Source: a bacterium
GTDB taxonomy: Bacteria > Auribacterota > Erginobacteria > Erginobacterales > DAOSXE01
Length of the DNA stretch: 64,000 bases
Reading direction: 5' to 3'
Assembly: GCA_035380285.1 (NCBI GenBank)
Contig: DAOSXE010000015.1
Coordinates: 1,927-65,926, forward strand
Position 1 is the stretch's first letter. Each line of letters starts with the position of its first letter. Below the pieces are notes generated by a model. The model searched no databases and was not told where the DNA came from. It saw only the letters and a list, made by a program, of their open reading frames with translations. The position numbers and the translations under genes are program-made. This document shows, piece after piece, positions 21,740 through 64,000 of the stretch.

Positions 21740-21812
21740 TGGAGCTGAGGGGATTCGAACCCCTGACCCCATGGCTGCCAGCCATGTGCTCTCCCAGCTG
21801 AGCTACAGCCCC
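21740..21812 (-). tRNA. tRNA-Ala (anticodon GGC)
   Basis: Reverse complement folds as cloverleaf: acceptor GGGGCTG/CAGCTCC with G3-U70 alanine identity pair, D-arm GCTC/GAGC, anticodon loop CTGGCAG, T-arm AGGGG-TTCGAAT-CCCCT; CCA not encoded. Confidence 0.9.
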
Positions 21813-53109: not shown

Positions 53110-53847
53110 TCATCGGGGAAAATCGTAGAAAAACCGGTCCGCCAACCGGTCCGCTCCCCCCCTCAACGCCGCCCCGACCAGCCAGGGGCGGCGAAGCAGG
53201 TACCAATCGCCGAAATAATCGAACTTGCGGCAGGAGGTGGTGATAAAGGCCCGGTACAGGGTCCGGAATCTTCGGCCGGTGCGACGGCCGTGGGCGCGCA
53301 GCCGACGGGCAAAGTCGATATCCTCGCCTACGCGGCGACCGGGATCGAAACCGCCCACGGCTTCGAAATCGCGGCGGCGGCACCAGAACAGACCCGCCGA
53401 AAGCCCGATCGGGACCGAACAGTAGATGAGAAGCCCGGTCAGCGCGATTCCCAGGGAAAGCCGTTCGGGCCGGATCATGACGCCGCCCCCGACGCACCGG
53501 GGGTTTCGCAACTTCCGTTCGATCTCGGAGAGCATGTTGTCGGACATGACGCTGTCGGCATCGACGGTCACCAGGATCTTCCCGCGGGCGAGACGGGCCC
53601 CGGCGTTGCGGACCAGGGAAAGGTTCCGGGCGTTTTCGACCGCCACCTGCGCTCCTCGGGCCCGGGCGATCTCCCCGGTCCCGTCGGTGCACCGGTTGCA
53701 GACCACGATGGTTTCCACCGCGCCCGGGCAGGCGCGCGAGGCGCGGGCGGTGGCATCGAGGCAGGCGCCGATCCGCTCGCTCTCGTCCCGGGCGGGAACC
53801 ACAACGGAAAAAAGAGGCGCGAAGGTTTGTGCGGGAACGGCCGTCAA
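53110..53847 (-). CDS. family 2 glycosyltransferase
   Basis: FSVVVPARDE, VDADSV motifs of GT-A fold. Confidence 0.8.
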   Translation of the reverse strand: MTAVPAQTFAPLFSVVVPARDESERIGACLDATARASRACPGAVETIVVCNRCTDGTGEIARARGAQVAVENARNLSLVRNAGARLARGKILVTVDADSVMSDNMLSEIERKLRNPRCVGGGVMIRPERLSLGIALTGLLIYCSVPIGLSAGLFWCRRRDFEAVGGFDPGRRVGEDIDFARRLRAHGRRTGRRFRTLYRAFITTSCRKFDYFGDWYLLRRPWLVGAALRGGADRLADRFFYDFPR

Positions 53848-54842
53848 TTATCCCGAGGCTCGCCGCCGGGCCTGAAGAGGTCGAGGAAACGGTCCTCGTA
53901 TTCCTCGTAGATTCCCCAGTGATCGAGTTCGGCCTTGAGGTGAGCCGCCAGGGCCAGATCCCGTTCCACCTGCTTGAACAGCTCCTCGATCCGGGCGATT
54001 ACTTCCCCCGGCACCGGCTCGTCCTCGTCCCATTCCTCGTCGTCGGAATAGGCCAAACCTTCCTCCCCCTCATCCATTTCCTCGAAATCCTCGTCGTCCA
54101 TGGGCATCAACGAGGCCATGGTCTCCTGGGCTTTCTTCCCCATTTCCGCCACTTCCTGATCGAAACGGACGATCGCTTCTTCGAACCCCCCGGCTCCGAA
54201 GGGCAGGTTGAGAAACTTGGTCAGAACCTGAAGCAGCGTCCTGGACGTGCGGGGGTTTTCGAAATTGATCGTATAATAGGGGACTTCCCCCAGAAGACAC
54301 ATGCCGGGCAGGTTTTCCCGGGCGGCGGCGCCCAGGAGGAGGCCGTTCAGCCCGCTGATCTGCCCGGTCTTGAGCAGGCGCATTCCCGCCTGGCGCAGGT
54401 GGTCGCGGAGTTCGGGGCTGTTGGCCACCCCCCAGAAACCGGGGGTCTCCCGATGCTGGATGGGGCTGGGAGCGGCGGCGAAGGTTATGATCCGGTACAC
54501 CCCCATCCGCCGGGCCAGGCCGATCGCTTCGGCGGCCATCCGGGCCTGATGGGAAACGTCGGGCTGGGCGTCCCCGGAGAGGAGGATGAGGTCACCCCCG
54601 GAATAAACGTTCTTCCAAAAATAAAAATTGGTTTCCGGAAGGTTGGGGACACGGGCCAGACCGGCATCGACCTCGATGCTGTTGGGGGCGAAATAGTCCT
54701 CGGCGTGAACGTAGGCAAAACGCTCAGCTCCCAGAACCTCGATCAGATACGAGACGATCTGGGAGGCCACGTACCCCATCCCCGGCCATGCGGCCAGGAG
54801 TTGGGGGTGCTTGAGACGAGGATTTTTCAGATAAGTGATCAT
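53844..54842 (-). CDS. PAC2-family protein
   Basis: MITYLKNPRLKHPQLLAAWPGMGYVA N-terminus and acidic C-terminal tail; start at internal ATG of ORF 53844..54917. Confidence 0.6.
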   Translation of the reverse strand: MITYLKNPRLKHPQLLAAWPGMGYVASQIVSYLIEVLGAERFAYVHAEDYFAPNSIEVDAGLARVPNLPETNFYFWKNVYSGGDLILLSGDAQPDVSHQARMAAEAIGLARRMGVYRIITFAAAPSPIQHRETPGFWGVANSPELRDHLRQAGMRLLKTGQISGLNGLLLGAAARENLPGMCLLGEVPYYTINFENPRTSRTLLQVLTKFLNLPFGAGGFEEAIVRFDQEVAEMGKKAQETMASLMPMDDEDFEEMDEGEEGLAYSDDEEWDEDEPVPGEVIARIEELFKQVERDLALAAHLKAELDHWGIYEEYEDRFLDLFRPGGEPRDN

Positions 54843-54856
54843 CGACGTTCGCCGTT

Positions 54857-55069
54857 TCAGAAGAACCAGAGCAGGAAGGCAAGGACCGCCGACCCGACCA
54901 GAAGCGCTCCCAGCCAATGTCTCCAGCCGTACAGCAGACCGGTGAGCGGGCCGACCGGCTCTTCCAGCAGCTCCCCGCAGTAGATGCAGTTCAGGTTTTC
55001 GTCCGGGGTGGGCTGGCCGCAGTGAGGACAGCGCACCAGCCCCGGTCCGGGGTCATTTCCCCTTCTCAA
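54857..55069 (-). CDS. small zinc-ribbon membrane protein
   Basis: CPHCG ... CIYCG double Cys pair followed by one hydrophobic helix; 70 aa. Confidence 0.4.
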   Translation of the reverse strand: MRRGNDPGPGLVRCPHCGQPTPDENLNCIYCGELLEEPVGPLTGLLYGWRHWLGALLVGSAVLAFLLWFF

Positions 55070-56414
55070 GCTTCTCGGCCTGGCGTTCGTAATCCCTGGC
55101 CGCGGCCTCGTGTCCCCGGGCGCGGCTGATCCGGGCCACCAGTTTCAGGGCCTCGATCTTATCCCGGAGAAACGAACCCTCGGCGGTCTTGGTCGCGGCC
55201 CGGGCCAGCTGGACCGCGCTTTCGGACATGCCCCGCTTGAACTGGGCCTCGGCCATATTGACCAGGACCAGGGTGTTGCCGGGGAAAGTCACCAGCAGCT
55301 GCTCCAGGACTTCCTTGGCCGCGGCCAGGTCTTTTTTCTTCTCCAGTTCGAGGGCGAGCCCGGTCAGGCAACCGAAGACGTCCAGGTTCTTCCCCAGAGC
55401 TTCGCGGATACGTCCGTGAACCCCGAGCTTGAATTCGTCTCCCAGGCCCCGGTAGGCGGCTTCCAGGATGCTGTGGGCGTGAAGAACCTCCATGGGGTAG
55501 TAGAACGGGGTTTCCGAGAGACCGTCTTCGGTCAGTTCCGCGGCTTTCTTGAATTCGCCCTTTTTCAGGCGATATTCCCCCATGGCCAGCTTGGAACGGG
55601 AATCCCAGGGCTCGCGCTTCTGCTTCTGGATGGCGCGGATCCGGTCCAGCCAATCCTTGGCCTCGTCCAGCTTCTCCTCCAAAAGGCAGAGTTCGGCCAG
55701 CTGGATCATGGCTTGATAGGATTCGGGCTCCGTTTTCAGGATCCTGTTGAAGGTGCGGCGGGCGGAGGCGTAATCGCCGAGGTCGAGGTAGGCCAACCCG
55801 ATCCACTTGACCGCGTCCATGTCGTCTTTCCTGATCTTCACCGCCTGCGTCAGGAATTCGATCGCGTCCTTTTTTCTGCCCACTTTCATGTAAAGACGCC
55901 CCAGGTCCTTGATCCGCCGGTGGGTGGCGCCGAAAACCCGGATCGCTTCCTTGAGGTTCTGAATCCCCTGCTGATGTTCGTCCATGACGAAATAGAGCTC
56001 GTAGAGGGCCGCGTACGAGCGCTCCTTCAGGGGACTGGTCCGGGGTATGTCCTTGAAGACGGCGACGGCCTCGGGAAGCTTTCCCCTCCGTTTATATATC
56101 CGGGCCAGGCGCACGTGCGCCGACCAGCTCTCCCCTTCCTTGACCAACTGCTTGTAGAGATCCACGGCGGAAGCCGATTTCCCCATCTCCTCATACACGC
56201 CGGCCAGCTGTTCCCGGATGAGCCGGTCCCGGGGAAAGACCGAGAGCGCCAGCTTCAGCACCGCCACCGCCTGCTCGTGCTCGCCCCGGCGGGCGAGCAG
56301 CGTGGCCAGGTGTTTATACGGCCCGTCCAGGCTGGGCCGATCGACGATTCGGTCCCGGACCTCGCGTTCCTTGGCCCCCTTCAATTTCAATTCCAGATCC
56401 TTGATCGTTTTCAT
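55053..56414 (-). CDS. tetratricopeptide-repeat protein
   Basis: Multiple 34-residue TPR-like units (A..Y...G.Y..A pattern) throughout. Confidence 0.8.
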   Translation of the reverse strand: MKTIKDLELKLKGAKEREVRDRIVDRPSLDGPYKHLATLLARRGEHEQAVAVLKLALSVFPRDRLIREQLAGVYEEMGKSASAVDLYKQLVKEGESWSAHVRLARIYKRRGKLPEAVAVFKDIPRTSPLKERSYAALYELYFVMDEHQQGIQNLKEAIRVFGATHRRIKDLGRLYMKVGRKKDAIEFLTQAVKIRKDDMDAVKWIGLAYLDLGDYASARRTFNRILKTEPESYQAMIQLAELCLLEEKLDEAKDWLDRIRAIQKQKREPWDSRSKLAMGEYRLKKGEFKKAAELTEDGLSETPFYYPMEVLHAHSILEAAYRGLGDEFKLGVHGRIREALGKNLDVFGCLTGLALELEKKKDLAAAKEVLEQLLVTFPGNTLVLVNMAEAQFKRGMSESAVQLARAATKTAEGSFLRDKIEALKLVARISRARGHEAAARDYERQAEKLEKGK

Positions 56415-56520
56415 CCTGACCCCCTTGGACGGTTGCAACTTTGATTTTCAGGATAGCGCAGCCCGAAGAAGCCAGGGAAGCAAAAAGCCTCGGCCCGGCG
56501 TTCGCGGCGTCGGCGACCGG

Positions 56521-56558
56521 GGCGCGGGAGGCGGGGCCGGGGCCCCGCCTCCCGCGCC
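56521..56558 (-). terminator. perfect 18-bp GC-rich inverted repeat after the kinase-fusion gene (no U-tract)
   Basis: ggcgcgggaggcggggcc / ggccccgcctcccgcgcc read directly, just past the stop codon of 56568..57932. Confidence 0.3.
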
Positions 56559-56567
56559 GGGGAGAGG

Positions 56568-57932
56568 TCAATACTCGTAGACGCTCCCGCCGATGAATTC
56601 CCGCAGAAGGGAATCGGCGGGGATGACGGAATCGTCCTCGAGAACGTCGACCTGTTCCAGCCAGTCGAGGCAGCGACGGGCCCGGGCATGGGCATCCTCG
56701 CGGCCCGGAGAGGCAGCGAACGCCTCCACCGCCCGGCGCAGGCTCTCGTACGTGTATTTCTTATGTACGGGAAGCTCGTACGGCAGATAGCCGTTGATGA
56801 CCGCGTCGGCCTCCTTGATGAAGGGAACGATGTACTTTTTTTCGGAATCCCGGACGTAATGCCAGTGTCCCACCGTCATTTCCGGGGAGTAGTTGCGGTG
56901 GAGGTTGTCCCGGACCATCCGCCGCAGGAGCCGGATGTCGGTCCAGGGAACGAAGTTCCCGTCACTGCCGGTCAGCTGACAGATCGCCTCGATATACACC
57001 CGGAACTGGCTTTTGCGGGGTACGCCCCGGGTCACCTGGTCGTGGAGGCCGTGGAGCCCCTCGACCACCAGGATTTCCCCGGGTGCGAGCTGCATCGTCT
57101 TGCCCGTTTCCTCGCGGCGGCCGGTTTTGAAGTTATAGACCGGCACCACCGTTTCTTTCCCGGCCAGGAGATCCTTAAGGTTCCTGTTGATGGTGGCGAT
57201 GTCCAGGGCCCCGGGCGTTTCGAAATCATAGTCGCCGTATTCGTCCCGGGGCTGGTCCTTGAGGTTCCAGAAATAATTGTCCAGGGCCAGAAGCTGCAGT
57301 TTTTCGCCCGCGGTCCGCAAGGCCTCGCAGATCTTCATCGTGGTCGTGGTCTTGCCCGAAGAACTCGGTCCGGCCACGATCACGAGCCTGATCCGGTCCC
57401 GGTGGGAGAGGATCTCGCCCGCGATTTTCCAGATCGCGCCCTCGTAGGCGCGGTTCACGTCGCGGATGACCTCCCCGTACCCTCCGAAAGCGAGTCTCCG
57501 GTTGATCCCCTCGATGCTGTCGACGTCGCGTTCACGGTTCCAGGACCGCGACCGGGTCACGATTTCCATGCGGTAGAGCTCTTCCCAGGTCACCCCCGGC
57601 GAGGAAGCCTGCTTCGGAGAGGGCTTCGTGCCCGCGCTCTTCTTCGCCGCCGTCTTTTTCGCGACCGCTCGCTTGACCGCGGTTTTCTTCGGGGACACCT
57701 TCTTCGCGGCGGTTTTTTTGACCGCGGCTTTCTTCGGGGGCGCCTTCTTCGCGGCGGTTTTTTTGACCGCGGCTTTCTTCGGGGGCGCCTTCTTCACGGC
57801 GGTTTTTTTGACCGCGCTCTTCTTCGCCGCCGTCTTTTTCGCGACCGCCTGCTTGACCGCGGCCTTCTTGGGGGCGGCCTTCTTCGGGGCCGCTTTCTTC
57901 TTGGTCGGCATCAATACCTCCTGGATGCTCAT
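56568..57932 (-). CDS. histone H1-like Lys/Ala-repeat N-terminal tail fused to a uridine-kinase/phosphoribulokinase-family P-loop domain
   Basis: N-terminal ~100 aa of KKAAPKKAAVKK repeats; then Walker A VIVAGPSSSGKTTT and LALDNYF motif. Confidence 0.7.
   Translation of the reverse strand: MSIQEVLMPTKKKAAPKKAAPKKAAVKQAVAKKTAAKKSAVKKTAVKKAPPKKAAVKKTAAKKAPPKKAAVKKTAAKKVSPKKTAVKRAVAKKTAAKKSAGTKPSPKQASSPGVTWEELYRMEIVTRSRSWNRERDVDSIEGINRRLAFGGYGEVIRDVNRAYEGAIWKIAGEILSHRDRIRLVIVAGPSSSGKTTTTMKICEALRTAGEKLQLLALDNYFWNLKDQPRDEYGDYDFETPGALDIATINRNLKDLLAGKETVVPVYNFKTGRREETGKTMQLAPGEILVVEGLHGLHDQVTRGVPRKSQFRVYIEAICQLTGSDGNFVPWTDIRLLRRMVRDNLHRNYSPEMTVGHWHYVRDSEKKYIVPFIKEADAVINGYLPYELPVHKKYTYESLRRAVEAFAASPGREDAHARARRCLDWLEQVDVLEDDSVIPADSLLREFIGGSVYEY
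57620..57911. repeat. coding tandem repeats (45-bp unit duplicated, plus shorter copies) encoding the Lys/Ala tail
   Basis: cttcgcggcggtttttttgaccgcggctttcttcgggggcgcc occurs twice in tandem; related units flank it. Confidence 0.7.
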
Positions 57933-57954
57933 CCGCTACGGCTGCAGAAGGGTA

Positions 57955-57987
57955 CGCCCGGGCGGCCGCAGCCGGGCCGCCCGGGCG
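57955..57987 (-). terminator. 13-bp GC-rich hairpin between the two histone-like genes
   Basis: cgcccgggcggcc / ggccgcccgggcg with 7-nt loop, downstream of the stop at 58031. Confidence 0.25.
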
Positions 57988-58030
57988 TTGACCCGCGCCC
58001 GGCGGGCGCGGGAACTGTGCGTACTCGGTG

Positions 58031-58303
58031 TTACTTTTTCTTGGCAGACTTTTTGGCGGCTTTCTTCGGAGCCGCTTTCTTGGCCACTGCCTTCTTGGGG
58101 GCGGCCTTCTTGGCGACGGCCTTCTTCGGGGCCGCTTTCTTGGCCACGGCCTTCTTGGGGGCGGCCTTCTTCACCGCGGCTTTCTTCGGGGCCGCTTTCT
58201 TGGCCGCGGCCTTCTTCGGCGCCGCTTTCTTGGCGGCGGCCTTCTTCGGCGCCGCTTTCTTGGCGGCGGCCTTCTTCGGGGCGGCTTTCTTCTGGGCGGG
58301 CAT
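58031..58303 (-). CDS. histone H1-like nucleoid protein (Lys/Ala repeat)
   Basis: 90-aa product composed almost entirely of KKAAPKKAAA decapeptide repeats; start at internal ATG (MPAQKK) of ORF 58031..58345. Confidence 0.7.
   Translation of the reverse strand: MPAQKKAAPKKAAAKKAAPKKAAAKKAAPKKAAAKKAAPKKAAVKKAAPKKAVAKKAAPKKAVAKKAAPKKAVAKKAAPKKAAKKSAKKK
58040..58290. repeat. 30-bp periodic coding repeat (KKAAPKKAAA units)
   Basis: About eight near-identical 30-nt units read directly. Confidence 0.7.
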
Positions 58304-58430
58304 CGTCTGCCTCCTTGGTGTTGCCATGGCTGCCGAAACCCTCACCCGGACAGCGACAGCCGCTCCGCCCGGGCGGGCCGGCCGGACACGAAAACCGGCC
58401 GGACCCTACTATTCTCTTTCTTGGCGCCAA

Positions 58431-58459
58431 GTTTTATTCCTTCCCCGCATGTTGTCAAC
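58431..58459 (-). promoter_or_regulatory. candidate promoter for the histone-like gene (TTGACA-17 nt-TAAAAC on minus strand)
   Basis: Hexamers read on the minus strand ~130 nt upstream of the start codon. Confidence 0.25.
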
Positions 58460-58675
58460 ATTGATTTCGCATCGATTTTTTAAAAGCGGCGGCCGGGGCG
58501 CGAACCCGGGCGCGCGACGACGACCGGGCGCGGGGGCGGAGCGGGGAGCGGACTCGGACGGCGAACGGCGGGGGCGGCGGGGCGGGGCCGACTTTTTCTC
58601 GACAACAACGCGCCGGCTGGTAAAAGATATCTCTTGGAAAACGAACCGAGAAAATCCCATCGGGAAACATCGAGG

Positions 58676-59056
58676 ATGAAAATCACCGCCATCGTCGCCC
58701 GCGGACGCGACGCCGGGACCAGGTTCGAGGAGGTCGAACTCGAAGAACACGAAATCGACGAGGGACCGGGCTCGCCGGTTTTGAGCGCCACCGAGCGCCT
58801 CCCGGCCGGGCGCGCCACCTTCATGAACATCCCCCGGGGGTGGCGCTGGGATTGGCACTCCTCTCCTACCCGGGATTTCGTCTACGTGGTCGAGGGGCAG
58901 GTCACCGTCACCGTGGGAACGCGAGGAGCCGAGGAGAGCCGATCTTTCGGACCCGGAGAACTGTTCTGTTTCGACGACCCCGTGGGGCGGGGCCATCGGA
59001 CGACGGTGGACCGGGCCAGCCGCCTGGTGCACATCCAGGGACTGAAGGATTCCTGA
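58676..59056 (+). CDS. cupin-fold small protein
   Basis: 126 aa from internal ATG (MKITAIV); beta-rich with conserved Gly/His spacing; assignment tentative. Confidence 0.45.
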   Translation: MKITAIVARGRDAGTRFEEVELEEHEIDEGPGSPVLSATERLPAGRATFMNIPRGWRWDWHSSPTRDFVYVVEGQVTVTVGTRGAEESRSFGPGELFCFDDPVGRGHRTTVDRASRLVHIQGLKDS

Positions 59057-63458: not shown

Positions 63459-64000
63459 ATGAATTCATTGCTGCGAAACTGCGGGATCGTATTGTTCTCT
63501 TTAACCGCGGCCGCGGGGACGGCCCGGGCCCTGGAGGTCGAGTTGACCGGGGCGGAAACGGTCAGCCGCTGCGAGGCCGACACCTACTACATCTCCGTCG
63601 GGAACCCCGCCTGGACCGCCCACACCGCGGAGAACATCGTCCTGGTCGACACGGTCCCCCCCGACGGATTCGTCTTCCAGAACGATTCCGCCTCCATCAC
63701 CACCCCCCAGGGCTCCCTGTCCGGAAGCGGGGCCAACCCGGGGATTTCCGGGAGTGACCTGACCTGGGACCTGAACGCCCTTTTCGGATCCAGCATCACC
63801 CTGGCGCCCGGCGACACCCTGGATATCGAGTTCGCCCTGGAGATCGACTGCGACGGCAACAGCGGCCAGAACGACCTGACGGTCAGCTACGACTTCCCGT
63901 TCCCCGTGCCCCAGTCCGATACCGAGGCTCTCTTCATCACGGTGATGCCCGGGGACATCAACCTCCTCAAGACCCCGGTGACCCAGGAGGCCGGGATGGG
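63459..64000 (+). CDS. secreted hypothetical protein, 3-prime partial (runs off window)
   Basis: GGGGGAAAGG Shine-Dalgarno before ATG; signal peptide MNSLLRNCGIVLFSLTAAAGTARA; frame open to end of window. Confidence 0.45.
   Translation, partial: MNSLLRNCGIVLFSLTAAAGTARALEVELTGAETVSRCEADTYYISVGNPAWTAHTAENIVLVDTVPPDGFVFQNDSASITTPQGSLSGSGANPGISGSDLTWDLNALFGSSITLAPGDTLDIEFALEIDCDGNSGQNDLTVSYDFPFPVPQSDTEALFITVMPGDINLLKTPVTQEAGM

Follow-up and report, generated by a model that had tools for sequence, protein, structure and literature searches.

A minus-strand gene at positions 56568–57911 of the 64,000-nucleotide stretch of contig DAOSXE010000015.1 analyzed here (the window) encodes a 447-residue protein in which a Lys-rich, disordered N-terminal tail precedes a core resembling uridine/cytidine kinases, as judged from the open reading frame (ORF), profile matches and a structure model. 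Comparison with homologous sequences indicates that this fusion, which we refer to as gene B, is genuine, conserved in its lineage, and polymorphic. Upstream on the same strand, separated from gene B by a spacer of 119 nt, lies gene A (58031–58303, TAA stop included), which encodes a standalone Lys/Ala/Pro repeat protein of 90 residues. By analogy with characterized proteins we favor a reading, to which we assign a probability of roughly 0.55, in which the tail would tether a salvage-type nucleoside kinase non-specifically to polyanions (nucleic acid) and the gene A product would be a free, nucleoid-associated paralogue of the tail. The original prediction, made from the letters of this stretch, had described two adjacent Lys/Ala-repeat genes, and both ORFs are present on the minus strand at these positions.

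A Lys-rich tail on a uridine/cytidine-kinase-like core

The gene B ORF extends from 56568 to 57932 (454 residues), and the ATG at 57911, which opens the sequence MPTKKK, is the start used in the deposited 447-residue protein. This ATG is likely the true start because an AGGAGG sequence can be read 5 nt upstream of it (57917–57922, minus strand), because it agrees with the deposited protein, and because the resulting M-x-x-KKK opening is common to relatives. The tail corresponds to residues 1–105 (57597–57911, minus strand). It is composed of Lys/Ala/Pro/Thr/Val repeats, with 35% Lys, 1% Arg, 28% Ala, and 10% Pro, contains no Asp or Glu, and carries a net charge of +38. An AlphaFold2 model, built with 71 homologues, assigns residues 1–100 predicted local distance difference test (pLDDT) values of 46–54 and no secondary structure, and the tail is thus predicted to be disordered. 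Most of the segment coding for it is occupied by a 45-bp tandem array (57632–57896, minus strand; 5.9 copies, score 274 in Tandem Repeats Finder) that can also be read with a 90-bp period; its longest exact tandem stretch is 53 nt at an offset of 45 nt, or 98 nt in total. The junction between tail and core (…PSPKQASSPGVTWEELY…) is unique sequence and is in frame through to the core.

The remaining residues, 106–447 (56571–57596, minus strand), form the kinase core, as delimited by Pfam, AlphaFold2, and Foldseek. The core is composed of an N-terminal helical subdomain (residues ∼109–170), a UCK-like P-loop domain (residues ∼176–375), and a C-terminal helical subdomain (residues ∼377–447), and the Walker A motif GPSSSGKTT is located at residues 181–189 (57345–57371, minus strand). 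The order of about 100 residues of repeats followed by a Walker A kinase domain is therefore as the original prediction had it. In contrast to the tail, the 342 residues of the core are mildly acidic (net charge −4), with 4% Lys and 10% Arg.

The assignment of the core to the uridine kinase family, also part of the original prediction, is supported by both profile and structure comparisons. Pfam PF00485 (PRK/uridine kinase) matches residues 185–380 of the 454-residue ORF over profile positions 3–188 of 196, with 81.2 bits against a cut-off of 22 and an E value of 1.2e-22. A profile search had been proposed as a way of deciding between uridine kinase, phosphoribulokinase, and related families; the NCBIfam Udk equivalogs TIGR00235 and NF004018 are the best models, yet they score 95.1 and 91.8 bits against cut-offs of 220.3 and 180, respectively, and the NCBIfam phosphoribulokinase model, with 62.3 bits, falls further short of its cut-off of 236. 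The best matches by sequence in the PDB are the uridine-cytidine kinases of T. thermophilus and human. The AlphaFold2 model of the core has pLDDT values above 90 over most of its length, and in a Foldseek search of the PDB with this model uridine-cytidine kinases rank first (E value 5e-12, target-normalized template modeling score [TM-score] 0.7–0.78). The phosphoribulokinase structures rank below all UCK structures (target-normalized TM-score 0.4–0.53), and pantothenate kinases (PanK) are likewise lower.

Active-site residues were compared in an alignment of the window protein and six diverse homologues with what we take to be the sequence and residue numbering of UCK2. The catalytic Asp62, the P-loop Lys, Tyr112, Phe114, and Arg166/169/174 are kept. 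In all seven family members aligned, His117, which confers base specificity in UCK2, is replaced by Gly, and the ribose-binding Asp84 is replaced by Glu. In addition, the family has a 13-residue insertion relative to UCK2 ahead of the Arg-rich lid. Gene B thus shares the P-loop fold, PF00485, and the catalytic and ribose/phosphate-binding residues with Udk, with the T. thermophilus enzyme ttCK (PDB 3asy/3asz), and with human UCK2 (PDB 1udw/1uej), but it is only ∼24% identical to the Udk/UCK proteins, adds helical subdomains of ∼70 residues on either side of the P-loop domain, and carries a Lys-rich tail that canonical Udk does not have. On the combined evidence of sequence and model, the core is a nucleoside-type kinase of the UCK fold and, because the Udk equivalog cut-offs are missed, it is not a canonical Udk orthologue.

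Conservation of the fusion and evolution of the tail

The repeats of the tail raise the question of whether the fusion is an artefact of assembly or gene calling, in which an H1-like gene was joined to a kinase gene through its repeats. One Joint Genome Institute contig (L011) does begin within the tail array, for one deposited protein (P0270) the annotated start is an internal Met, and the 98-nt exact tandem stretch could mislead short-read assemblers on copy number. Against such a join, GCA_964456375.1, GCA_036822455.1, and ENA ERZ795048 show 100% DNA identity across the two arrays (these three assemblies may share public reads in part, and identity does not prove that the samples are independent), the junction is unique and in frame, and more than 40 clusters of tailed homologues derive from many samples and genera. 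One of these homologues, P0009, has a 112-residue tail and is encoded on a 298-kb contig of the metagenome-assembled genome (MAG) MFD02416.bin.2.262. This is apparently a long-read (Nanopore) assembly, given that its name matches the sample labels of the Microflora Danica project, for which a Nanopore MAG study exists (PMC12313526). An artefact is therefore highly improbable, and an assembly join, a concern of the original prediction, is effectively refuted for the fusion itself by the three identical assemblies and the many tailed homologues.

Lys-rich N-terminal tails of 24–133 residues are found in 43 of the 77 closest full-length homologue clusters (core identity 61–80%), so the absence of the tail from all homologues, which would have counted against the original prediction, is not what is observed. 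Two named carriers, Candidatus Erginobacter occultus and the short-tailed Candidatus Euphemobacter frigidus, are members of Candidatus Auribacterota in the Planctomycetes–Verrucomicrobia–Chlamydiae (PVC) group; the proteins of Candidatus Tritonobacter lacicola and of an ‘Aureabacteria’ MAG are tail-less. A neighbor-joining tree contains two tailed clades, but its deep branches are short, and the tail may have arisen once or twice. At every tailed locus with flanks long enough to judge (the short contigs L002, L024, and L042 are uninformative), genes for a MocA-type oxidoreductase, the kinase, a TPR protein, and a PAC2-family protein occur in this order, which is absent around tail-less and ATP-cone homologues. 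We considered this conserved operon as a guide to kinase function and rejected it, as the order is confined to the tailed lineage. On the basis of sequence similarity and this gene order, the window probably derives from a member or relative of the Auribacterota. A tail of this kind had been called unusual on a nucleoside or sugar kinase; this holds for kinases generally, but within the gene B lineage the tail is the norm.

The tail evolves by gain and loss of repeat units. The repeat period differs between lineages (45, 48, 36/18, or 33 bp, or none detectable), and on this basis we read the tails as products of separate tandem duplications that later diverged. Within the 90%-identity cluster of gene B itself, there are alleles with 1, 2, and 3 copies of APPKKAAVKKTAAKK, a unit of 15 residues or 45 bp, that are otherwise identical (P0272, P0001, and P0271). 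The suggestion that copy number may vary between strains or be mis-assembled is consistent with these alleles and with the contig that starts inside the array. Because the array holds a 98-nt exact tandem stretch, the 1- and 2-copy alleles could be assembler collapses; an artefact is less probable for the 3-copy allele. As such arrays break or vary in short-read assemblies, annotated lengths are unreliable without long reads.

Several observations weigh against a tether function. Tail length varies more than fivefold and tail sequence is not conserved among homologues; 34 of the 77 closest full-length clusters have no tail or a short N-terminus that is not Lys-rich; and a few loci in the syntenic lineage (L013/L039, L041, and L025) have a tail of 10 residues or fewer, with the TPR gene and mostly also the PAC2 gene downstream. 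Judging from these homologues, in many of which the tail is absent or vestigial, it is dispensable for the enzyme. Furthermore, the substrates of nucleoside kinases are small and diffusible, and the benefit of tethering is not obvious. The substrate may also be other than uridine or cytidine, given the replacement of His117 by Gly and of Asp84 by Glu and the 13-residue insertion.

The same variability in length and sequence, the differences in copy number between near-identical alleles, and the many close homologues (few of them in the syntenic lineage) in which the tail is absent or vestigial would also be expected if the tail were a tolerated low-complexity expansion, generated by replication slippage in a Lys-codon-rich 5′ end and without function, with gene A as a by-product. 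We consider this unlikely in view of tail composition. The fraction of Arg among basic residues, R/(K+R), is 0.03–0.30 in the tails versus 0.53–0.76 in the cores of the same proteins, and in the window genome, with ∼64% G+C, the tail has 35% Lys and 1% Arg versus 4% Lys and 10% Arg in the core. Across homologues from genomes of 49% to 66% G+C, the K+R content of the tail stays between 0.29 and 0.46 and does not track the G+C proxy; tail Ala does track it (rho 0.66), with Thr and Ser taking its place as G+C drops. Acidic residues are nearly absent (a mean of ∼1.2 per tail), the reading frame is unbroken in every homologue, and the M-x-x-KKK start recurs across genera. Since the Lys bias of the tail opposes both the Arg bias of the core and the mutational pressure of a G+C-rich genome, these sequences argue for selection for a Lys-rich polycation over neutral drift, and this is the main argument for such selection.

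The upstream repeat gene and its surroundings

The gene A product has the form MPAQ(KKAAPKKAAA)n…KKSAKKK, in agreement with its earlier description as a 90-residue protein of KKAAPKKAAA repeats, and it is called as a 90-residue gene in public assemblies. It consists of 41% Lys, 41% Ala, and 10% Pro and has no acidic residues, a net charge of +37, and a pI of 11.6. A Shine–Dalgarno-like AAGGAGG lies 6 nt upstream of its ATG (58310–58316, minus strand, read directly from the sequence). The protein is encoded by a 30-bp tandem array (58056–58291, minus strand; 7.9 copies, 85% matches, score 325) in which the longest exact repeat is 44 nt at an offset of 30 nt. Tandem Repeats Finder thus reports both of the unit sizes, 30 and 45 bp, that the original prediction had named. 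Gene A and the gene B tail are the only Lys-rich stretches in all frames of the 64-kb window.

Database searches returned no specific homologue of gene A: all 48 matches are compositional, to Lys/Ala tails on SWIB/MDM2, ribosomal protein L30, HU, dodecin, and similar proteins, and the exact protein sequence is absent from the protein collection searched. No gene A was found at the corresponding position in any of the relatives examined, where nothing separates the kinase from the MocA gene that precedes it by ∼130–560 nt. In the window genome, four opposite-strand genes (GDPD, DUF4404, MgtC, and cupin) together with gene A separate MocA from the kinase. Starting one base ahead of the ATG, the DNA of gene A aligns collinearly with that coding for the tail over 216 nt, with ∼78% identity and no large gaps; the alignment scores 166 versus 40 ± 8 for codon-order shuffles, and the first 20 residues are near-identical (MPAQKKAAPKKAAAKKAAPK in gene A and MPTKKKAAPKKAAPKKAAVK in the gene B tail). 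Because the two are collinear from the start codon, gene A is probably a lineage-specific paralogue of the 5′ end of the kinase gene that later expanded with its own 30-bp unit. Against paralogy, the collinearity could in part reflect convergence on a shared 15-nt periodicity, which the shuffle control destroys.

Gene A and the tail had been termed histone H1-like. The Lys/Ala composition upholds this description, but the folded part of a linker histone is missing: Pfam Linker_histone, which represents the globular winged-helix domain, has no match in either protein at E ≤ 0.01, and a folded domain is predicted in neither the tail nor gene A (the structure model covers the tail). The Pfam HC2 profile (PF07382, cut-off 40 bits) scores above its cut-off with the tail (47.8 bits) and below it with gene A (32.4 bits), both being low-complexity, compositional matches. 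The curated NCBIfam cut-offs are missed by both proteins, with NF038053 (cut-off 80 bits) scoring 46.6 for the tail and 30 for gene A, and NF038052 (Hc2, cut-off 135 bits) scoring 32.5 for the tail and giving no match to gene A at E ≤ 0.01. On sequence grounds the term therefore applies to composition only, for the tail and gene A alike.

In this compositional sense the closest counterparts are chlamydial Hc2 (HctB) and the H1-like proteins of Bordetella and Burkholderia, which are likewise small and built from Lys/Ala-rich, pentamer-based repeats. Hc2 repeat number differs among strains, as multi-pentamer units are duplicated or deleted (PMC2848022). The PVC group, to which the gene B lineage belongs, also includes Chlamydiae. 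Hc2 differs from gene A in size (165–237 residues with 36-residue elements versus 90 residues with 10-residue units), and, unlike the gene B tail, it has no enzyme attached.

The spacer between the two genes contains two G+C-rich hairpins with stems of 9 bp and ∼14 bp and no U-tract (57954–58012, minus strand). The predicted fold of 57905–58040 (136 nt) has an energy of −70.1 kcal/mol, with z = −3.4 relative to shuffles, and a terminator scan reported neither hairpin on the coding (minus) strand. The hairpins are possibly a terminator, an attenuator, or a transcript-stabilizing element. A scan of 56300–58900 for sigma-70 promoters gave zero matches, and an Rfam search of the window found no riboswitch or other known RNA near either gene; its sole match at the gathering threshold is a tRNA gene at 21740–21812 (minus strand). 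A 663-residue ORF on the plus strand (56688–58679) lies antisense across both repeat genes. We regard it as spurious, as is usual opposite G+C-rich genes, and homologous sequences back the minus-strand genes only.

Other features of the neighborhood are as follows. Downstream of the kinase, the gene order continues with the TPR protein (∼450 residues), the PAC2-family protein (∼330 residues), a Pfam-less protein of ∼595 residues and, in relatives, a peptidyl-prolyl isomerase; the proteins of this order, from MocA to the isomerase, have 51–76% identity across the tailed lineage (window 53844–56438, minus strand). In the window genome, a glycosyltransferase gene precedes that of the Pfam-less protein, and genes for M48 and M10 peptidases separate the latter from the isomerase. 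The PAC2-family protein (53844–54917, minus strand), encoded two genes downstream of the kinase, contains a strongly acidic stretch (…MPMDDEDFEEMDEGEEGLAYSDDEEWDEDEP…) near its C-terminal third; its PAC2 (proteasome-assembly-chaperone-like) gene thus stands beside a TPR gene in a bacterium of the PVC group. A plus-strand gene with a called length of 3774 residues begins close to the window end, at ∼63459–64000, and runs past it, its coordinates being derived from contig mapping (L001 1–4453).

Tail-less relatives encode, ∼2.7 kb upstream of the kinase on the same strand, a Pfam-less protein of ∼100 residues with a Lys/Arg-rich C-terminal tail (…KKAAPKAKKARRRKKSKKKAA). Such proteins are located at 2874–3182 of L007, ∼1202–1351 of L020, ∼440–589 of L022, ∼1247–1369 of L023, and ∼553–720 of L051. 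Because of these proteins near the tail-less kinases, Lys-rich tails seem to be common in these PVC-group genomes.

Proposed role of the tail and the N-terminal slot of the kinase subfamily

The tether reading can be put as follows. The gene B product would be a cytoplasmic nucleoside kinase with the uridine/cytidine-kinase fold and a core of ∼345 residues. In a single lineage of the PVC group, whose members are uncultivated and related to Candidatus Auribacterota, the N-terminus of this kinase would have gained a disordered polycationic tail similar in composition to the C-terminal domain of linker histones. In-frame duplication and deletion of 15–48-bp units would cause the length and sequence of the tail to drift, even between near-identical strains, and selection would keep its Lys density at ∼30–40% with almost no acidic residues. 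The tail would bind polyanions non-specifically through its charge, most likely DNA or RNA and possibly polyphosphate, and the kinase, which may be oligomeric, would thereby be concentrated on the nucleoid or on RNA. The gene A protein would most likely act as a small, free nucleoid-associated protein of the H1/Hc2 type. Nucleic-acid binding by the tail and by gene A is suggested by their composition (35–41% Lys, no acidic residues) and by characterized analogues; we also infer, rather than observe, the substrate of the kinase and any effect of the tail on its activity or localization.

The analogues comprise folded domains that bear disordered Lys/Ala/Pro repeat tails, including actinobacterial TopA, mycobacterial Ku (with PAKKA repeats), DdbA, and HU with an H1-like C-terminal tail. 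Lys-repeat tails confer or raise non-specific DNA binding, condensation, or processivity in Streptomyces TopA (PMC5714199), in M. smegmatis Ku (PMC3553676), and in Streptomyces DdbA, a DksA-like protein whose H1-like domain is N-terminal (PMC3643593), and the repeats of chlamydial Hc2 are a further such case (PMC2848022). Most of these partner domains already act on DNA or RNA, whereas that of gene B is a small-molecule kinase of nucleotide metabolism with the tail at its N-terminus. Pseudomonas AlgP, which has H1-like repeats of the KPAA type but no enzymatic domain, associates with polyphosphate granules and shows that repeats of this kind can serve a polyanion other than DNA (PMC9239181); the gene A/gene B locus yielded no link to polyphosphate.

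The gene B kinase belongs to a large subfamily, and its tail fills an N-terminal slot that is held elsewhere in the family by other modules. An exhaustive profile-free scan yielded 938 cluster representatives at E < 1e-30, to which the ∼345-residue core with its helical, P-loop, and helical subdomains is common, and the N-terminus varies. Some members have one or two ATP-cones or a Metallophos domain plus an ATP-cone at this position, and fusions to shikimate kinase and to the tRNA methyltransferase TrmK are each found in one representative. The majority are ∼550 residues long, with an N-terminal region of ∼230 residues that gives weak, below-threshold matches to ThrRS-N/TGS-like domains. In the longer members, the core is 35–53% identical to that of gene B over nearly its full length and the accessory module occupies the same position; ATP-cone matches (PF03477) have E values of 1e-15 to 1e-42 (Elusimicrobiota, Sumerlaeota/BRC1), and the ATP-cone is a folded ligand-binding domain as opposed to the disordered polycation of gene B. 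Database names for the subfamily are ‘nucleoside kinase’, ‘uridine kinase’, and the uninformative ‘response regulator SirA’. A literature search for ATP-cone or TGS domains with uridine kinase found nothing relevant to the subfamily, and the paper describing Auribacterota makes no mention of histone-like proteins or of the gene B kinase. Tails from 0 to 133 residues on one orthologous core, together with the 1-, 2-, and 3-copy alleles with identical cores, amount to a natural comparison, to which the relatives with a folded ATP-cone or TGS-like module at the tail position add.

The shared position suggests that the tail could instead be a regulatory module, switching the activity or oligomeric state of the kinase in response to a polyanion (polyphosphate or RNA) or by folding back onto the core. 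The ATP-cone, ATP-cone plus Metallophos, and weak ThrRS-N/TGS-like matches in distant members are consistent with such a role, as is the polyphosphate-granule precedent of AlgP. Tailed cores are also uniformly mildly acidic, with net charges of −9 to +1 (mean −6.0) compared to −9 to +15 (mean +0.4) for tail-less cores (P0001–P0080; Mann–Whitney p = 1e-9, uncorrected for phylogeny, with widely overlapping ranges). We keep this difference as a weak hint only and do not take it as evidence of tail–core interaction, since phylogeny confounds it and the ranges overlap, and the structure model shows no confident contact between tail and core. Regulation through the tail is accordingly rather unlikely in our estimation.

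A further alternative is that the target of the kinase is not a free nucleoside but RNA, tRNA, or a nucleotide bound to one of these, and that the tail is one of several RNA-binding handles. The TrmK fusion and the weak ThrRS-N/TGS matches in most members point in this direction, as do the change of the UCK base-specificity His to Gly and the family-specific 13-residue insertion near the lid. These are outweighed by the retention of the catalytic Asp and of the ribose/phosphate-binding Tyr, Phe, and Arg residues of nucleoside kinases, which are also the best fold matches, and by the ATP-cone and shikimate-kinase fusions, which suggest small-molecule nucleotide metabolism; moreover, only a single representative has the TrmK fusion, and the TGS matches fall short of the threshold. 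An RNA-directed kinase is therefore improbable. A broader and doubtful idea is that the tail, the ThrRS-N/TGS-like region, TrmK, and the ATP-cone could be interchangeable nucleic-acid- or nucleotide-sensing handles on a family whose role is tied to RNA, tRNA, or the nucleoid. The gene B kinase would then be bound to chromatin or RNA, and its ∼four tails per oligomer would help the gene A protein to compact DNA.

Current understanding is not overturned by these observations, and the function of the tether proposed here is one that we infer. H1-like Lys/Ala tails have so far been described mainly on proteins that handle nucleic acids, such as HU, TopA, Ku, DksA-like, SWIB, and ribosomal proteins. 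What is new here is the occurrence of such a tail, conserved within a lineage, on a small-molecule, salvage-type kinase, which would widen the range of this module. The locus also points to a large, uncharacterized kinase subfamily, and if its N-terminal modules do prove to be interchangeable handles, nucleotide salvage would be physically coupled to nucleic-acid turnover.

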